From assembly GCA_040767965.1 (NCBI GenBank), contig JAXGNR010000005.1, positions 218,623-282,622 of the forward strand: a stretch of DNA of 64,000 nt, written 5' to 3'. Numbering within the stretch: position 1 is the first letter of the stretch; every line of letters begins with the position of its first letter. The notes under the pieces were generated by a model. It had not been told where the DNA came from and searched no databases. It saw only the letters and a program-made list of their open reading frames with translations. Source of the DNA: Atribacterota bacterium (GTDB lineage: Bacteria > Atribacterota > Phoenicimicrobiia > Phoenicimicrobiales > Stramentimicrobiaceae). This document shows, piece after piece, positions 12,958 to 64,000 of this stretch. Position numbers and translations under genes: made by a program.

Positions 12958-13044
12958 GCCGGGATGGCGGAATAGGCAGACGCGCCAGCTTGAGGGGCTG
13001 GTAGGCATATGCTTGTGGGGGTTCAAATCCCCCTCCCGGCACCA
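12958..13044 (+). tRNA. tRNA-Leu(GAG)
   Basis: Acceptor GCCGGGA/TCCCGGC, anticodon arm CCAGC-TTGAGGG-GCTGG, long variable arm, A73 and encoded CCA. Confidence 0.96.
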
Positions 13045-28108: not shown

Positions 28109-29905
28109 ATGATTAAAAAAATAAGAACACAGCTTCTGTTGTGTTATGGTACATCATGTATTTCTAATGGAGCTGCTGAAGTAAAAATAGCCTTGGAAAA
28201 ATCACTAAAGGAATTTAAGTTAGAAAACGAGGTAGAAATAATCACTACTGGTTGTATGGGTATATGTGAGTTAGGCCCTGTTATGATGGTTTACCCGGAT
28301 GGGATTTTCTATCAAAAAATCAAACCAGAAGATGCTCCGGAAATAATTCAGGAACATATCTTAAAAGGAAGAGTAGTTCAGAGACTTTTCTATAAAAAAC
28401 CAAAAACAGAAGAATTGGTTGATATGATTGAAGGAATAGATTTTTTTAAACTTCAAAAGAGAATTGCCCGTAGAAACTGTGGAATTATTGATGTAAACAG
28501 TATAGATGAGTATATTGGGGCTGATGGTTTTATGGCGTTAGGGAAAGCATTAACCCAAATGACACCCAGCGAAGTCGTAGATGAAGTTAAAAAATCAGGA
28601 TTACGAGGAAGAGGAGGAGCAGGATTCCCAACTGGATTAAAATGGGAGTTTGCAGCAAAAGCACCGGGAAAGCAAAAATATATTCTTTGCAACTCTGATG
28701 AAGGTGACCCTGGCGCATTTATGGATAGAAGCATGTTAGAGGGGGACTCCTTTAGTGTATTAGAAGCTATGATGATAGGAGGCTATGCTATTGGTGCTAA
28801 CCAGGGGTATATTTATGTAAGAGCTGAATATCCTCTTGCAATAGAAAGATTAAAAATTGCAGTAAATGAAATGAGAAAACATGAACTTCTAGGGGAAAAT
28901 ATATTAGGAACAGGTTTTGATTTTGATGTAGAGATCAGGATGGGAGCAGGTGCTTTTGTCTGTGGTGAAGAAACTGCTTTAATGCGCTCTATTGAAGGCA
29001 AAAGAGGCGAACCAAGACCAAGACCTCCTTTTCCTGCCAACAAAGGGCTATTTGAATGCCCAACTGTTTTGAATAATGTGGAAACATTAGCAAACATTCC
29101 TTATATAATTTTAAACGGAGCCGAAGATTTTGCGTCTGTAGGAACAGAAAAAAGTAAAGGGACAAAAATATTTGCTTTAGCAGGAAATATTCATAATACT
29201 GGATTAATAGAAGTTCCAATTGGAATTACTTTAAGAGATATAGTATACAAAATAGGAGGAGGAATCCCAGATAATAAAAAATTTAAAGCCGTACAGATTG
29301 GAGGGCCTTCAGGAGGGTGTATACCTGAACAACATCTTGATGCAGTTGTAGATTACGAATCACTAAAAGCATTAGGGGCAATTATGGGGTCTGGAGGCTT
29401 AATCGTGATGGATGAAGATACATGTATGGTTGATATAGCCCGTTATTTTATGAATTTTATACAGGATGAATCTTGTGGTAAGTGCACTCCTTGCCGTGAA
29501 GGTACCAGGGTCATGCTGGATATATTAACAAGGATATGCGAAGGGAAAGGAAAGATGGAAGATTTGGATACTCTGGAATCTCTTTCATATAGCATAAAAG
29601 ATTCATCATTATGCGGACTGGGACAGACTGCCCCGAACCCGGTCCTGTCAACGCTCCAATATTTTAAAGATGAATATATTGAACATATAAAAGAAAAAAA
29701 GTGCAGAGCTGGAGTTTGTCATAATTTAATAAAATATGAAATAGATCCGGAAAAATGTACTGGATGTACTGTTTGTGCTAAAAAATGTCCGGTTGACGCA
29801 ATTTCGGGAGAAAAAAAACATCCCCATAAGATTGATCAAAATAAATGTATAAAATGCGGTGCCTGTTATGAAGCTTGTAAATTTGGAGCAATATATAAGT
29901 TTTAG
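28109..29905 (+). CDS. NuoF/HndC/HydB-like FMN/NAD(H) subunit, long (bifurcating-type) form
   Basis: N-terminal thioredoxin-like [2Fe-2S] (C..C..GCMGIC), LRGRGGAGFPTG, DEGDPGAFMDR, GAFVCGEE, ESCGKCTPCR, C-terminal 2x[4Fe-4S]. Confidence 0.92.
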   Translation: MIKKIRTQLLLCYGTSCISNGAAEVKIALEKSLKEFKLENEVEIITTGCMGICELGPVMMVYPDGIFYQKIKPEDAPEIIQEHILKGRVVQRLFYKKPKTEELVDMIEGIDFFKLQKRIARRNCGIIDVNSIDEYIGADGFMALGKALTQMTPSEVVDEVKKSGLRGRGGAGFPTGLKWEFAAKAPGKQKYILCNSDEGDPGAFMDRSMLEGDSFSVLEAMMIGGYAIGANQGYIYVRAEYPLAIERLKIAVNEMRKHELLGENILGTGFDFDVEIRMGAGAFVCGEETALMRSIEGKRGEPRPRPPFPANKGLFECPTVLNNVETLANIPYIILNGAEDFASVGTEKSKGTKIFALAGNIHNTGLIEVPIGITLRDIVYKIGGGIPDNKKFKAVQIGGPSGGCIPEQHLDAVVDYESLKALGAIMGSGGLIVMDEDTCMVDIARYFMNFIQDESCGKCTPCREGTRVMLDILTRICEGKGKMEDLDTLESLSYSIKDSSLCGLGQTAPNPVLSTLQYFKDEYIEHIKEKKCRAGVCHNLIKYEIDPEKCTGCTVCAKKCPVDAISGEKKHPHKIDQNKCIKCGACYEACKFGAIYKF

Positions 29906-49647: not shown

Positions 49648-49723
49648 GGGCCGTTAGCTCAGTTGGCAGAGCATCTGACTCTTAATCAGAGGGTCGCAGG
49701 TTCGAGGCCTGCACGGCCTACCA
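49648..49723 (+). tRNA. tRNA-Lys(CTT)
   Basis: Anticodon arm TCTGA-CTCTTAA-TCAGA; CCA encoded. Confidence 0.96.
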
Positions 49724-49731
49724 GTAATTAT

Positions 49732-49804
49732 GCCTCCATCGTCTAGGGGTTCAGGACACCGCCCTTTCACGGCGGCGACAGGGGTTCAAATCCCCTTGGA
49801 GGCA
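49732..49804 (+). tRNA. tRNA-Glu(TTC)
   Basis: Anticodon arm CCGCC-CTTTCAC-GGCGG; acceptor GCCTCCA/TGGAGGC; followed by CCT. Confidence 0.96.
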
Positions 49805-49826
49805 CCTTTTTTTTAATTATGGTAAT

Positions 49827-49902
49827 GGGCGGATAGCTCAGTTGGCAGAGCACCTGCTTCACATGTAGGGGGTCACAGGTTCAAGTCCTGTTCCGCCTAC
49901 CA
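49827..49902 (+). tRNA. tRNA-Val(CAC)
   Basis: Anticodon arm CCTGC-TTCACAT-GTAGG; CCA encoded. Confidence 0.95.
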
Positions 49903-49915
49903 ACGTTAAAAAAAA

Positions 49916-49991
49916 GCCGGTGTAGCTCAATTGGCAGAGCAACGGAATCGTAATCCGTAGGTTGTCTGTTCAACTCAGATCACCGGCTCCA
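49916..49991 (+). tRNA. tRNA-Thr(CGT)
   Basis: Anticodon arm ACGGA-ATCGTAA-TCCGT; acceptor GCCGGTG/CACCGGC; CCA encoded. Confidence 0.95.
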
Positions 49992-59659: not shown

Positions 59660-61762
59660 GTGACTAAAAACGATGTTGAAAAGATAAGGACTTTTGCTAT
59701 TGTTGGTCATGGCGATTCTGGAAAAACGTCACTGAACGAAGCTTTGCTTTATGATTCCGGGATGATAACCAGACTGGGAAAGATTGAACAAGGAAACACT
59801 GTTTCTGATTATGATCCAAAGGAATCGAAGCGAGGTATTACAATTAATTCTTCTTTAGCTTACCTTAACTGGAAAGATACCACATTTAATATTATTGATA
59901 CCCCAGGATATCTTGATTTTATAATTGACACCAAATCAAGCTTGAGGGTCGTTGATGCTGCTCTAATTGTGGTTTGTGGTGTTTCGGGTGTAGAGGTGCA
60001 AACTGAAAAAGTCTGGGATTATACCGAAGAATTTAACTTACCCAGAATCTTTTTTATTAATAAAATGGATCGAGAAAGGTCTGATTTTGAAAGAGCTAGT
60101 CAAGAAATTAAGGATAATTTTGGACCAAATGCTGTTCCGATCCAACTGCCTATTGGAGCAGAAGAATCATTTGAAGGCATCGTGGATCTTTTAAAGATGA
60201 AGGCATATTATTTTAAATCTGATTCTGAAGGTAAAAGCCATTGGGAAGAAAAGGAAATACCTGAAGATTTGTCAGAAAAAGCTAATGAGTATCGACAGAA
60301 AATGATTGAAGCGGCGGCAGAATATAATGATGAAATATTAATGAAATACCTTGACGGGGAAGAGCTGAGTCAGCAAGAAATACAATCCTGCTTAAAGGGC
60401 GGGATTATAGAAAGAAAAATCTTTCCTGTGCTATGTGGATCTGCAACAAAAAATATAGGCATTGAGCTCTTGCTTGACTTTATCAAAGATTATTTCCCAA
60501 ATCCGGTAGAATTGCCGGATATAGAAGTAAAAAATATAAATGATCAAAAAGAGACTAGGTTAAAAAGATCTCTTGAAGAATCTCCTTTTTCAGCCTTGGT
60601 ATTCAAAACTGTTGCTGATCCTTATGTTGGAAATTTAACTTATTTTAGAGTCTTCTCGGGAGAGTTAAATTCAGATTCCTTAATTTATAATTCTACGCAT
60701 GATATTGAAAATAAAGTTGCAAAAATTTATAGAATGCAGGGTAAAGAGCAAAGCCCGGTAACCAAAGTAATTCCAGGAGGAATCGGAGCTATTGCTAAAC
60801 TGAAGAAAACAAATACTGGTGATACTTTATGCGATAAAGAAAACCTTATTGAATTTAAAAAAATAGAATACCCCGAACCAATTATGAAGCTGGCAATTTC
60901 ACCAAAAACAAAAGGAGATGAAGACAAACTAAGTATAGCAATAAATAGAATAGTAGAAGAAGAACCTACTATTCAGGTTTACAGGGATGAAGATACTGGA
61001 GAAACAATCATTGCCGGCATGGGAGAATCGCATCTTGATGTTGTTATTGAGACCATGGAAACTAAGTTTGGTGTTGAAATAGAAAAAAATACTCCCAGGG
61101 TTGGCTATAAGGAAACTATTCGTAAAAAAGTTCAAGCTGAAGGCAAATATAAAAAACAATCTGGGGGACGTGGTCAATATGGTCATTGTTTTGTGGAGTT
61201 TGAGCCGCAAGATAGAGGAAAAGGGTTTGAGTTTATTGACAAGATCGTAGGGGGGGTAATACCTAAGCAGTATCGCCCTGCTGTTGAAAAAGGTATTATT
61301 GAGGCCATGCAAAAAGGAGTACTGGCTGGTTATCCAACTGTAGATATCAAGGCAACCTTATATGATGGAAGTTATCATACAGTAGATTCTTCAGAAATGG
61401 CTTTTAAGGTAGCAGGCTCAATGGCTTTTAAAAAAGGAGTTACTCAGGCCGATCCTATCCTTTTGGAACCAATATATGAACTTTCAATTACTATTCCTAA
61501 GGATTATATGGGAGATATTATTGGTGATATTAACAGTAAAAGAGGCAAAATAATGGGTATGGATGAAACTGAAAAAGGCAAACAAATTATTAAGGCACAA
61601 GTAGCACAAGCAGAAATTTTCCGATATTCCATTGATTTGCGCTCTATTACCCAGGGTAGAGGAACATTTACCATGAAATTTTCTCACTTTGAGGAAGTTC
61701 CTTCCCAGATAGCTCAAGAAATAATTGAAAAAGTTAAAAAAGAAGAAGAATCAGAAACCTAA
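59660..61762 (+). CDS. fusA: Elongation factor G paralog (EF-G2 type)
   Basis: Five-domain EF-G with G1 GHGDSGKT and DTPGY; located outside the str operon. Confidence 0.9.
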   Translation: MTKNDVEKIRTFAIVGHGDSGKTSLNEALLYDSGMITRLGKIEQGNTVSDYDPKESKRGITINSSLAYLNWKDTTFNIIDTPGYLDFIIDTKSSLRVVDAALIVVCGVSGVEVQTEKVWDYTEEFNLPRIFFINKMDRERSDFERASQEIKDNFGPNAVPIQLPIGAEESFEGIVDLLKMKAYYFKSDSEGKSHWEEKEIPEDLSEKANEYRQKMIEAAAEYNDEILMKYLDGEELSQQEIQSCLKGGIIERKIFPVLCGSATKNIGIELLLDFIKDYFPNPVELPDIEVKNINDQKETRLKRSLEESPFSALVFKTVADPYVGNLTYFRVFSGELNSDSLIYNSTHDIENKVAKIYRMQGKEQSPVTKVIPGGIGAIAKLKKTNTGDTLCDKENLIEFKKIEYPEPIMKLAISPKTKGDEDKLSIAINRIVEEEPTIQVYRDEDTGETIIAGMGESHLDVVIETMETKFGVEIEKNTPRVGYKETIRKKVQAEGKYKKQSGGRGQYGHCFVEFEPQDRGKGFEFIDKIVGGVIPKQYRPAVEKGIIEAMQKGVLAGYPTVDIKATLYDGSYHTVDSSEMAFKVAGSMAFKKGVTQADPILLEPIYELSITIPKDYMGDIIGDINSKRGKIMGMDETEKGKQIIKAQVAQAEIFRYSIDLRSITQGRGTFTMKFSHFEEVPSQIAQEIIEKVKKEEESET

Positions 61763-61859: not shown

Positions 61860-61952
61860 ATGGGCTTTTTTGAAGATTTAGAATGGTATTGGATCGCGGC
61901 TATTATTGCAGCTATTGTAGGAGTTATCTGGTGGCTAGGTGGGGATGATTAG
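61860..61952 (+). CDS. 30-aa single-TM peptide MGFFEDLEWYWIAAIIAAIVGVIWWLGGDD (not in the ORF track)
   Basis: Strong RBS AAGGGAGGTGG upstream, higher GC than its flanks, upstream promoter and downstream terminator. Confidence 0.75.
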   Translation: MGFFEDLEWYWIAAIIAAIVGVIWWLGGDD

Positions 61953-62021
61953 AATATAAGATATTTTTTGCATATACCCCATAAATAAAAGAGTATTATT
62001 TTATTAAAGTATTATTGTTTC

Positions 62022-62062
62022 AAATGAGTGCAGTAAGTTAAAAGACTGCACTCATTTATTTT
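62022..62062 (+). terminator. Intrinsic terminator after the small ORF
   Basis: AAATGAGTGCAGT / ACTGCACTCATTT 13-bp stem followed by a T-rich tail. Confidence 0.82.
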
Positions 62063-62139
62063 AAAAACATTTCGGGTATTACAAATAAAGAAATTTTTAT
62101 TATTTATTATTATTAAGAATTAATCTTTTAGAAGAATTA

Positions 62140-62168
62140 TTGACTTTTAGCACTTCATTAATTATAAT
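62140..62168 (+). promoter_or_regulatory. sigma70 promoter of the leuS leader
   Basis: TTGACT-17 nt-TATAAT. Confidence 0.85.
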
Positions 62169-62196
62169 AAAACAAGTTTTCAAAAATAAATAAATT

Positions 62197-62513
62197 TGGC
62201 AGAAAACAATTGAGAATCAATAAAAACAGAGAATCAGTGCAGTTGAAAACTGATATTTGCATCTCTAGAAGCTCAACTGCTACATTTTGGGCAAGTTAGT
62301 ATATTCAATAAGATAAGCTGAATTGCTCAAAACGTTTCAAGCGTTAAATGAAATAAGGGTAGATGGGGCTGTAGCTCAGATGGGAGAGTGCCTCCTTGGC
62401 GTGGAGGAAGTCGCGGGTTCGATTCCCGCCAGCTCCACCATAATCTACTAAAAAAGGGTGGTACCACGGGAATCTCGTCCCTTGTAAATTTCTGTTACAA
62501 GTGGCGGGTTTTT
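62197..62513 (+). promoter_or_regulatory. T-box riboswitch (Leu, CUC specifier) with antiterminator and terminator
   Basis: Stem I with AGAGA box, ATCAG/CTGAT apex, GTTG loop and GAA-G-CTC-A specifier; Stem II 62285-62332; GCGTTA box in the IIA hairpin; antiterminator AAGGG-TGGTACC-ACGGG-AAT-CTCGT-CCCTT; terminator 62474-62513. Confidence 0.9.
62365..62440 (+). tRNA. tRNA-Ala(GGC) embedded in the T-box leader
   Basis: Acceptor GGGGCTG/CAGCTCC with G3.U70, anticodon arm CCTCC-TTGGCGT-GGAGG, T-arm GCGGG-TTCGATT-CCCGC, ACCA end; 76 nt. Confidence 0.97.
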
Positions 62514-62538
62514 CTATTTTAAAGGGAGTTTAATCAAT

Positions 62539-64000
62539 ATGAAAGAAATGAATGAAACTTATGATTTTAGAGAAATAGAAGAAAAATGGCAAACATATTG
62601 GTATAGTAATAATTATTTCGAAAGCAAAACAGATAAAAATAAACCTAAGTATTATGTTTTAGAGATGTTTCCTTACCCATCAGGAGAGCCTCATATGGGT
62701 CATGTTAAAAACTATGTTATTGGTGATGTAGTAGCAAGGTACAAACATAGCCGAGGTTATAATGTACTGCACCCCATGGGATGGGATTCATTTGGATTAC
62801 CTGCAGAAAATGCGGCTATAAAAAATAAGATCCATCCGGCTACCTGGACAAGAAATAATATAGAAAAAATGAAAAATACTCTTCGATCAATAGGTATAAC
62901 TTATGATTGGAATAGAGAAATATCTACCTGCAGCCCTGAATATTATAAATGGACACAATGGATGTTTTTACAACTATTTAAAAACGATCTTGCATATAAA
63001 AAGAAAGCCGTTGTAAATTGGTGTCCTTCCTGTGCAACAGTGCTAGCAAATGAGCAAGTTGTAAATGGCGGTTGTGAGAGGTGTGGTGCAGAAGTGACAA
63101 AAAAGGAGTTATCACAATGGTTTTTTAAGATTACTGATTATGCACAACAACTCCTTGATGATATGTCCACTTTAGAAGAATGGCCAGATAGGGTTTTAAC
63201 AATGCAAAAGAATTGGATTGGTCGCAGTGAAGGCGCTCAGGTTAAATTTAAAATAGAAGGTAGCAATGAAACATTATCCGTATTTACAACTAGACCTGAT
63301 ACTCTTTATGGGGTGACGTTTTTTGTACTTTCTCCGGAACATCCGATAGTTGAAAAGCTTACTAATGGTACAAAGCATGAAAAACAAATAAATTTATTTA
63401 AAAAAGAAATAGCCAGAGAAAATATCACTGAAAAAGATTTAGCTACAACTGAAAAAAAAGGTTGCTTTACTGGAAGTTATGCTATTAACCCGCTCAACCA
63501 TGATAAGATTCCAATATGGATCGCTAACTATGTTTTAATGGAGTATGGGACAGGAATGGTTATGGCAGTTCCTGCACACGATCAAAGAGATTTAGATTTT
63601 GCCAGAAAATATAATTTACCGGTGAAGGTAGTTATTCAACCCGAAAATACAACACTTTCCGGCGAGACTTTAAAAGAGGCTTATGATGGTGAAGGCGTAA
63701 TGGTTAATTCTGATAATTTTAACGGGCTTTCTAATATAAAAGGCAAAGAGCTTATTATAAAACATTTAGAAGAAAATGGTTTAGGGAAAAAAGAGATTAA
63801 TTTTAGGTTAAGAGATTGGTTAATCTCAAGACAGAGATACTGGGGAGCCCCAATACCGGTTGTCTACTGTAAAGACTGCGGTATTGTACCAGTACCTGAA
63901 AAAGAATTACCAGTTTACTTGCCAGATGACGTAGATTTCAAGCCAACTGGTCTTTCTCCATTATTGTCAAGTAAAAAATTTTTTCATACCATTTGCCCGA
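62539..64000 (+). CDS. leuS: Leucine--tRNA ligase (3' truncated; not in the ORF track)
   Basis: My translation: [76 protein letters not shown]. Confidence 0.97.

Follow-up and report, generated by a model that had tools for sequence, protein, structure and literature searches.

A tRNA-Ala(GGC) gene nested in Stem III of a predicted leuS T-box riboswitch from Atribacterota

T-box riboswitches are mRNA leaders that read tRNA in trans. We analysed a stretch of 64,000 nucleotides from an Atribacterota bacterium (assembly GCA_040767965.1, contig JAXGNR010000005.1, positions 218,623–282,622 of the forward strand; hereafter the window, whose positions are used throughout), in which the T-box leader of leuS, the gene for leucine–tRNA ligase, encloses a complete tRNA gene. 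An original prediction, made from the sequence, had placed an intact tRNA-Ala(GGC) in the loop of a short Stem III helix, preceded by one promoter and T-box Stems I and II and followed by an antiterminator, an overlapping terminator and leuS. This nested arrangement was confirmed, with the same coordinates. The reading that we favour, and consider probable, is that a genuine Leu-specific (CUC) transcription-attenuating T-box controls leuS, that a complete, functional tRNA-Ala(GGC) gene stands in place of its Stem III apical loop, and that one promoter yields both constitutive pre-tRNA-Ala and Leu-regulated leuS mRNA. The parts of the leader, its gene and the tRNA that it would sense are listed here; CM denotes the covariance model.

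62140–62168, + strand: sigma-70-type promoter, TTGACT-17 nt-TATAAT, 11/12 matches
62190–62485, + strand: T-box leader, full-length RF00230 with an 83-nt insertion in the Stem III loop (CM)
62197–62282, + strand: Stem I with AGAGA bulge, distal loop and specifier loop (CM alignment, folds)
62272–62274, + strand: specifier codon CUC (Leu), an aligned column complementary to the tRNA-Leu(GAG) anticodon
62285–62332, + strand: Stem II (fold of 62284–62357, −18.4 kcal/mol, z −4.42; CM alignment)
62333–62357, + strand: Stem IIA/B, with CGUUA (F-box-like) at 62342–62346 and a purine-rich run before Stem III (CM alignment)
62358–62364, + strand: Stem III 5′ strand GGUAGAU, abutting tRNA position 1
62365–62440, + strand: complete 76-nt tRNA-Ala(GGC) in place of the Stem III loop (ARAGORN, RF00005)
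62443–62449, + strand: Stem III 3′ strand AUCUACU (sequence, folds)
62456–62481, + strand: T-box sequence and antiterminator (CM alignment, fold)
62474–62520, + strand: intrinsic terminator overlapping the 3′ half of the antiterminator, then the U-run (fold)
62539–64000, + strand: leuS, running off the window end (TIGR00396, 730.7 bits, cut-off 548.4)
12958–13044, + strand: tRNA-Leu(GAG), the predicted trans-acting ligand, with A73 and CCA (ARAGORN, sequence)

A T-box leader around a tRNA gene

The Rfam T-box model RF00230 aligns end to end (model positions 1–219) to 62190–62485, with 72.3 bits and an E-value of 7.4e-16 under permissive filters. The alignment recovers the predicted Stem II and Stem I with its Leu codon, and it places 83 inserted bases in the Stem III loop, against 11 in the model consensus. 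The specifier loop, GAAG-CUC-A at 62268–62275, presents a codon followed by a purine, as the T-box family requires, and when 46 leaders are aligned over their first 125 bases, all 46 have CTC in the column after the S-turn GAA. A two-codon specifier, with an Ala codon (GCU) overlapping CUC, was rejected: GCU occurs in 6 of the 46 aligned leaders, and the others have ACUC. At the 3′ end of the leader, the T-box sequence reads AGGGUGGUACCACG (62455–62468), and its UGGU bulge is complementary to the A73-CCA end of tRNA-Leu(GAG). This tRNA, encoded in the same window, fits both the CUC specifier and the UGGU bulge.

The antiterminator consists of helix A1 (GGG/CCC), a 7-nt bulge UGGUACC (UGGU at 62459–62462) and helix A2 (ACGGG/CUCGU); A1 and A2 are paired in 98.9% and 99.4%, respectively, across 62 homologues. 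Its 3′ strand and the terminator have CUCGUCCC in common, which makes the two folds mutually exclusive, again as the family requires. The leuS attenuator is a 13-pair hairpin at 62474–62508 (14 stacked positions, one a C·U mismatch) and takes the rho-independent form, a G+C-containing hairpin directly before the U-run UUUUUCUAUUUU. None of 200 shuffles was as stable as its fold (62474–62522, −13.8 kcal/mol, z −4.33). A simple terminator scan found zero terminators in the region, and its failure to report the attenuator is attributed to the internal mismatch. With the fold of the terminator and the TIGR00396 match of leuS, the predicted succession of antiterminator, overlapping terminator and leuS holds. 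The minimum-free-energy fold of 62176–62522 (−97.5 kcal/mol, z −3.62) contains Stem I, Stem II, the closing helix stacked on the cloverleaf, and the terminator.

In the part of the TBDB paper available to us (PMC7778990), from which the names of the Stem IIA/B motifs are also taken, Stem III is described as bordered by a 5′ purine-rich RRRNG and a 3′ AA. The window has AUAAG/UAAGG-stem-U-AAAAAA, which is purine-rich with no exact RRRNG, and homologues elsewhere have GAGYG-stem-...-AA. Apart from the window's own gathering score and this inexact purine motif, the leader is a T-box by the sequence features examined. As a separate observation, two T-box leaders of the same genome are each followed by a further partial match, confined to the 3′ portion of the model (about positions 147–216; G000:C14:28069–28170 beside 28220–28487, and G000:C9:94609–94687 beside 94325–94563). 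These partial matches look like duplicated antiterminator–terminator units.

The insert in Stem III is called as tRNA-Ala(ggc) by ARAGORN (62365–62440, + strand) and scores 64.4 bits with the Rfam tRNA model RF00005, for which the gathering score is 29. It has G3·U70, A73 and an encoded CCA; the G3·U70 wobble is the major identity element recognized by alanyl-tRNA synthetase (AlaRS). Among the 40 tRNA genes of the draft genome the nested copy is the sole tRNA-Ala(GGC). In other genomes (blastn, E ≤ 1e-8, a threshold at which 17 of 30 genomes gave any match) the nested tRNA is the only full-length match in 15 of the 17, and each of the remaining two has a second match at 76–79% identity. All 62 homologous rows keep G·U at position 3·70, and pairing in the four tRNA helices reaches 98–100% across 62 homologues, with many compensatory changes.

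The helix that closes Stem III around the tRNA, GGTAGAT/ATCTACT in the window, was predicted as 7 bp and consists of six Watson–Crick pairs and one G·U. We tested how well the spacer that follows CCA pairs with the 16 bases 5′ of the tRNA, using partners swapped between unlike loci and shuffled spacers as controls. Cognate flanks pair at a mean of −8.9 kcal/mol (81 unique pairs), versus −5.5 for swapped (5870 pairs) and −5.1 for shuffled ones; 86% of cognate flanks reach −6 kcal/mol or lower, versus 41% of swapped and 30% of shuffled. The sequence of the helix varies by lineage (GGUAGAU/AUCUACY, GACAG/CUGUC, GAUAGCG/CGCUAUC, GGUAGGGCG/CGUUCUACC). Within Atribacterota it is nearly invariant, the outermost pair being G-U, G-C or A-U depending on the genome.

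Base pairs were counted on an alignment (A2) of 62 unique non-Atribacterota rows, in which the poorly pairing Chloroflexia were kept and the structure was drawn from one row; Atribacterota rows, out of register in the MAFFT alignment A1, were left out of the count. All five basal Stem III pairs change on both sides, so the covariation that the original prediction had named as a check of the closing helix is present. The basal Stem III cells are 80.8% paired, with failures mostly in Chloroflexia rows, whose flanks are poorly aligned. For the whole 34-pair structure, 96.8% of cells are paired, versus 82.6% in shuffles (0 of 500 reach the observed value) and 43–53% when partners are slid by 1–3 columns. 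A U stands at position −1 of the tRNA in 74 of 81 unique flanks, and in 51 of 58 outside Atribacterota, where the U content of the flank is 23%; position −2 is a purine in 78 of 81. Bacterial RNase P prefers U(−1). The spacer between CCA and the 3′ strand of the helix ranges from 2 to about 25 nt across loci. Judged from these alignments, selection acts on the closing helix and also on the insert, which it maintains as a tRNA.

Distribution, transcripts and a probable loss of the sensor

At the DNA level the region is present in all of 40 related genomes searched, which belong to two families of one order, with matches that mostly run from just 5′ of the closing helix through the tRNA to the terminator. 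Intersecting tRNA and T-box matches in relatives, which had been suggested as a check, gave a full-length RF00230 match enclosing tRNA-Ala(ggc) in 19 of 19 loci, at 47.5–110.3 bits; 14 of the 19 score at or above 93, the curated gathering score. Most of 20 aligned Atribacterota leaders have a TTGACT and a TATAAT-like −10 element 5′ of Stem I, and the CTC specifier is seen in this alignment too. The lowest-scoring locus (L019, relative G014, 47.5 bits) has a Stem I that is out of line with the others, and its leuS starts about 480 bases beyond the T-box sequence. This leader may be decaying or rearranged.

To extend the comparison, species-representative genomes were scanned for the pattern GGTTCRAWTCC, 11 bases, CCA, and GGGTGGNACC within a further 5–35 bases. 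At least 119 loci were found, of which 75 continue as ACC-R-CG; two of these (L060, L131) are chance matches, and 73 loci carry a true T-box antiterminator and terminator. Every true T-box locus that holds a whole tRNA (70 of 70, among the 73) has tRNA-Ala(ggc). The pattern admits any tRNA with GGTTCRAWTCC and an encoded CCA, yet among the loci listed nested tRNAs of other identities were rejected: the 46 matches with another or no tRNA lack the T-box continuation and are chance matches, although further cases may exist. The 73 named genomes with the nested leader belong to four phyla, Atribacterota, Bacillota, Chloroflexota and Armatimonadota. The Bacillota carriers include Syntrophomonadaceae (Syntrophomonas wolfei subsp. 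methylbutyratica, S. palmitatica, Thermosyntropha lipolytica) and Peptococcaceae, the latter grouped with Desulfofundulus, Desulfotruncus, Desulfitispora (D. alkaliphila), Thermoanaerobacteraceae, Gelria and Syntrophaceticus; the others are Ktedonobacteria, Chloroflexia and Thermomicrobiales, and Armatimonadota and Candidatus Fervidifonticultor. A full-length RF00230 match encloses the tRNA in 19 Bacillota-type loci (101–133 bits, among the best 150 of 375 matches) and in 8 of 8 loci from Chloroflexota, Armatimonadota and one named Atribacteria genome (51.6–89.8 bits). In the class that includes Syntrophomonas wolfei, a longer pattern matches exactly, and once only, in 84 of 125 genomes; the reversed control gave 0. 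Some Chloroflexota carry a second tRNA, tRNA-Ala(CGC), about 60 bases 5′ of the T-box start on the same strand (L024, 2780–2855 (−); L087, 3844–3919 (−); L058); there, two Ala tRNAs flank Stems I and II.

We placed the carriers on an unrooted LeuS tree, built by a quick search from 91 N-terminal fragments, all from genomes with the tRNA–leuS linkage. Four records titled 'bacterium' (L065, L066, L069, L074) were assigned to Armatimonadota by likeness, and the two chance loci (L060, L131), duplicates L112 and L126, and fragments below 280 aa were left out. Recent transfer between phyla was rejected, as the phylum labels need no more than the minimum of 4 changes on this tree; the tree suggests that long vertical descent is the better fit. 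Since the nesting spans four phyla and the LeuS tree follows them, its distribution suggests that it is old.

Across the phylum, 80 of 86 Atribacterota genomes match. In the two families of the window's order (f1, 20 of 21 genomes; f2, 27 of 30) most matches span tRNA and T-box, and in the five other families (32 of 34 genomes) they cover the tRNA only. At ten loci of these five families (L140–L149) a T-box match at E ≤ 0.001 was found in 0 of 10, and tRNA-Ala(ggc) and a directly downstream LeuS in 10 of 10. There, some 20 bases separate a promoter-like TTGAC...TATAAT from the tRNA, and after about 10 more bases come a terminator with hairpin arms GCUCGUCCC...GGGACGGGC, a ribosome-binding site and leuS, without Stem I, Stem II or T-box sequence. 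Because the CUCGUCCC arm of the terminator is the conserved 3′ strand of the T-box antiterminator, we read these loci as a T-box minus its sensor. It looks as though the sensor was lost while tRNA, terminator and leuS stayed together; the reverse, a sensor gained rather than lost, is also conceivable. On the LeuS tree, the 22 Atribacterota with the T-box and the 10 without it form one side of a branch (SH-aLRT 99).

Evidence on the promoter comes from a scan that is a crude consensus test: its seven promoter-like sites in the region do not exceed the number in shuffles (4.4 ± 2.1). The best site is the predicted one at 62140–62168, and no other + strand site is listed from 62169 to 62585, in line with the proposal of one promoter for leader, tRNA and gene. 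RNA evidence comes from assembled contigs of a close strain, from four metatranscriptome runs of three studies. Two contigs cross the 5′ junction of the tRNA with more than 31 bases on each side (X17 record 5, 62233–62462; X19 record 7, 62238–62399), and another crosses the terminator into leuS (X15 record 3, 62438–62699). In relatives that differ further upstream, contigs likewise continue out of the Stem IIA/B region into the tRNA, with loose ends at 62355/62356. Nothing covers 61941–62186, and the span from promoter to leuS is contained in no single contig, which is neutral as evidence. These contigs agree weakly with a single transcript. Taken together, nesting in four phyla, covariation, identity elements, a single gene copy, a scan without an internal promoter and bridging contigs strongly support the original proposal of a tRNA-sensing riboswitch that is itself a pre-tRNA.

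Weighing the readings

In the reading that we favour, transcription from the promoter at 62140–62168 would produce one transcript with Stem I, Stem II, Stem IIA/B, Stem III enclosing tRNA-Ala, the antiterminator or terminator, and leuS, so that leader, tRNA and leuS would be co-transcribed. Because the tRNA lies upstream of the termination point, each transcript, whether stopped or read through, would carry one pre-tRNA-Ala. Synthesis of the leuS mRNA would require uncharged tRNA-Leu(GAG), which would bind both the specifier and the UGGU bulge and thereby stabilize the antiterminator. RNase P and 3′ processing would free the tRNA-Ala, most likely after the termination decision, which falls about 150 nt beyond the 5′ end of the tRNA. 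Its single gene copy and the conserved U(−1) speak indirectly for maturation and aminoacylation in the cell. The conserved U(−1) likewise gives indirect support to the further original proposals, that terminated leaders may be recycled into tRNA-Ala and that an RNase P cut between Stem I and the antiterminator may be coupled to leuS control and to formation of the mRNA 5′ end. Prematurely terminated leaders, although abundant, would then not be waste: one promoter would supply constitutive tRNA and conditional leuS mRNA.

Several observations weigh against this reading. The window's T-box falls below the curated gathering score and is unlisted in a default scan of the window. Its Stem I distal loop is GUUGAAA rather than the GGUG consensus. 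In metatranscriptome contigs of close strains a G at 62243 restores the consensus GGUGAAA in this loop, and the T of the window at that position is a strain variant or an assembly error that lowers the RF00230 score. Contigs from the four RNA runs also have an A at 62266, where, as at 62243, the window has a T. Assembled RNA contigs are blind to starts, ends, strand and level, and the libraries may hold DNA. The sister families keep tRNA, terminator and leuS without a T-box, so that the tRNA–leuS linkage needs no riboswitch, and in three loci the nested leader precedes a gene of the fatty-acid CoA ligase family (L034, L045, L116; Desulfofundulus/Desulfotruncus). Processing poses a further difficulty. 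A fast RNase P cut at 62364/62365 would split Stems I and II from the discriminator and so conflict with riboswitch function, and two features of the transcript are awkward for the processing enzymes: the −1 base is paired within Stem III in the window's lineage, and the 3′ trailer of a terminated transcript ends in a stable hairpin.

The low score and variant distal loop could instead mean that tRNA-Leu sensing has been lost in the window's lineage, leaving a unit of promoter, tRNA, terminator and leuS with leaky read-through. Sister families that keep the remainder without Stem I/II and T-box sequence would be a precedent, and L019, at just 47.5 bits, could be on the same path. We regard this as very unlikely. 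Despite the insertion, 14 of 19 relatives reach the gathering score; conservation extends to the CTC specifier (46 of 46), the T-box sequence and the pairing of both antiterminator helices; a cognate tRNA-Leu(GAG) is encoded in the window; and low scores are the rule in this genome, where 14 of 15 T-box matches likewise fall short of the gathering score and the leuS leader takes sixth place. Slightly less credible still is that the tRNA-shaped insert is never freed as a working tRNA and acts as a scaffold or decoy, for example by offering its own ACCA in cis to the UGGU bulge or by attracting a protein that binds tRNA. Elements shaped like a tRNA but with roles other than decoding are known, and the A73-CCA of the insert is complementary to UGGU and lies 15 nt 5′ of the T-box sequence. 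Such a role would leave unexplained the invariant GGC anticodon and G3·U70, the compensatory changes in all four tRNA helices, the status of the insert as the genome's only tRNA-Ala(GGC) gene (and sole full-length match in 15 of 17 other genomes), and the presence of the same tRNA without a T-box in sister families. We give almost no credence to two back-to-back transcription units, with the tRNA under its own promoter, or to a misassembly, which would reduce the nesting to a coincidence of alignment. tRNA genes often have their own promoters, and our promoter test was crude; but the same order recurs in more than 100 independent assemblies from four phyla, the helix around the tRNA covaries, no promoter-like site is listed on the + strand within the leader, and RNA-library contigs cross the leader–tRNA junction. 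In the window's order the conserved promoter lies 5′ of Stem I, and a promoter directly 5′ of the tRNA is seen only in families without Stem I.

Beyond the probable reading of a Leu-specific T-box with a functional tRNA in its Stem III, we tentatively raise a bolder possibility, to which we give clearly less than even weight: that the nested tRNA takes an active part in the switch and couples tRNA maturation capacity, tRNA-Ala(GGC) supply and the synthesis of leucyl-tRNA synthetase (LeuRS). In one version, co-transcriptional folding of the tRNA would close Stem III and time the decision; in another, RNase P and 3′ processing would sever the sensor from the expression platform and make the 5′ end of the leuS mRNA. 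If true, a functional tie and no accident would be the reason why tRNA-Ala(GGC) and leuS are inherited together over four phyla, even where the T-box has been lost. Taken as a rival to the favoured reading, a mechanistic coupling of tRNA maturation to leuS expression with the tRNA as a working part appears unlikely to us. It has two variants: a fast-folding tRNA that holds Stem III closed and gives tRNA-Leu the time of about 80 further nt of transcription in which to be captured, and RNase P and 3′ processing that set the 5′ end and lifetime of the leuS mRNA. In its favour are one and the same tRNA, to the exclusion of others, kept in this position in four phyla, the persistence of tRNA-Ala(GGC)–terminator–leuS in 10 of 10 Atribacterota loci without a T-box, a LeuS tree that follows phyla and suggests long vertical retention, the conserved U(−1), and a closing helix that abuts tRNA position 1 in the window's lineage. 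A frozen accident explains this conservation equally well, however, because a sole tRNA-Ala(GGC) gene that hangs on the leuS-leader promoter is hard to relocate. A precise structural role is hard to reconcile with a spacer that varies from 2 to about 25 nt, and T-box leaders generally function without an insertion, with a consensus Stem III loop of 11 nt.

Known systems, downstream genes and neighbouring features

Canonical T-boxes (RF00230; the Bacillus leuS, tyrS and glyQS leaders) have the same Stem I specifier, Stem II and Stem IIA/B, the same 14-nt T-box sequence with its UGGN bulge, and the same exclusive antiterminator and terminator upstream of an aminoacyl-tRNA synthetase gene; the purine-rich and A-rich flanks of the window's Stem III resemble the purines and AA of the family. 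Their Stem III loop has about 11 nt, whereas here its place is taken by an entire tRNA gene, 76 nt long and specific for another amino acid. Unlike canonical T-boxes, this leader would therefore also be a tRNA precursor. The staphylococcal glyS antiterminator carries a lineage-specific stem Sa, as described in the accessible part of PMC9177973, and likewise indicates that the T-box 3′ domain tolerates an extra, lineage-confined helix. In that same account, insertions of the stem Sa type are plain hairpins with no decoding role, whereas the insertion analysed here is a functional RNA gene found in several phyla. In the literature searched, including the available parts of PMC7778990, PMC2494555 and PMC1913097, we found no tRNA gene inside a T-box; supplements and the T-box surveys in RNA (2008) and MMBR (2009) fell outside the scope of that search. 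The leader differs from the described T-boxes that we found in that a functional RNA gene replaces the Stem III loop, and an earlier mention may exist.

Other systems resemble parts of the arrangement. tRNA–mRNA co-transcripts are known from the thrU-tyrU-glyT-thrT-tufB operon of E. coli, and tRNAs also lie in 16S–23S rRNA spacers; in both cases they are freed by RNase P and 3′ processing. As at leuS, the tRNA there comes from the primary transcript of another gene product. Those tRNAs are not within a regulatory fold, however, and have no downstream attenuator that answers to another tRNA. T-box leaders can be cleaved, as in B. subtilis thrS, where cleavage stabilizes the mRNA, and in the S. 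aureus met leader, which is cut by RNase III. Cleavage alters the fate of the downstream mRNA in these leaders, and cuts by RNase P and the 3′ enzymes at the tRNA within the leuS leader would do likewise. There, a general mRNA nuclease acts on an unstructured or duplex site; here, the predicted cuts are those of tRNA maturation and would release a useful product. MALAT1 mascRNA and MEN-beta (RF01684) offer a tRNA-shaped module in a longer transcript, with an RNase P cut that defines the end of the host RNA, but they are eukaryotic, the module does not decode and no riboswitch is involved. A weak RF01684 match in the window (21.1 bits) is owed only to the insert being a tRNA.

If the favoured reading is right, the apex of Stem III tolerates a 76-nt folded domain, which bears on structural models and on the engineering of T-box–tRNA modules. 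RNase P and 3′ nucleases would act inside a riboswitch, raising questions about the kinetics of processing versus regulation and about the mRNA 5′ end. Because of the insertion the window's leader falls short of the Rfam gathering score; leaders of this kind can thus escape pipelines, and the breadth of the arrangement may inform early T-box evolution. Pipelines that mask tRNAs, as in the accessible part of PMC1913097, would split nested leaders.

LeuS lies downstream in 90 of 93 true cases (90 of 95 records; tblastn with the window's LeuS fragment). In ten Armatimonadota-like loci, ilvE (branched-chain amino acid transaminase) comes first and leuS about 1 kb further on (L051, L061, L065, L066, L069, L070, L074, L096, L115 and L135, from Armatimonadota or Candidatus Fervidifonticultor); the ilvE calls rest on NF005146, at 400–410 bits in the two loci tested. 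Because the nested Leu T-box precedes ilvE and then leuS, the riboswitch would there control a two-gene leucine operon. In L034, L045 and L116, the three loci with a fatty-acid CoA ligase family gene, no leuS was found within 1.8 kb of the nested leader. The first gene of L045 matches NF009233 at 827.6 bits, just below the cut-off of 832. The cassette may have moved to a new gene in these loci, or the enzyme may have a leucine-related role.

Upstream of the leader, the window has two further features:

59660–61762: upstream open reading frame (ORF)
62022–62065, + strand: intrinsic terminator of the upstream gene, a 13-bp hairpin and a U-rich run

The hairpin of this terminator (62022–62057) folds at −17.9 kcal/mol (z −5.54), with 0 of 200 shuffles as good, and it isolates the leuS leader from transcription coming from upstream. 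The simple scanner overlooked it as well, which is attributed to its 10-base loop. Elsewhere in the window, four clustered tRNA genes (Lys-CTT, Glu-TTC, Val-CAC, Thr-CGT) occupy 49648–49991 on the + strand, and the genome also encodes a tRNA-SeC (G000:C9:20785–20880).

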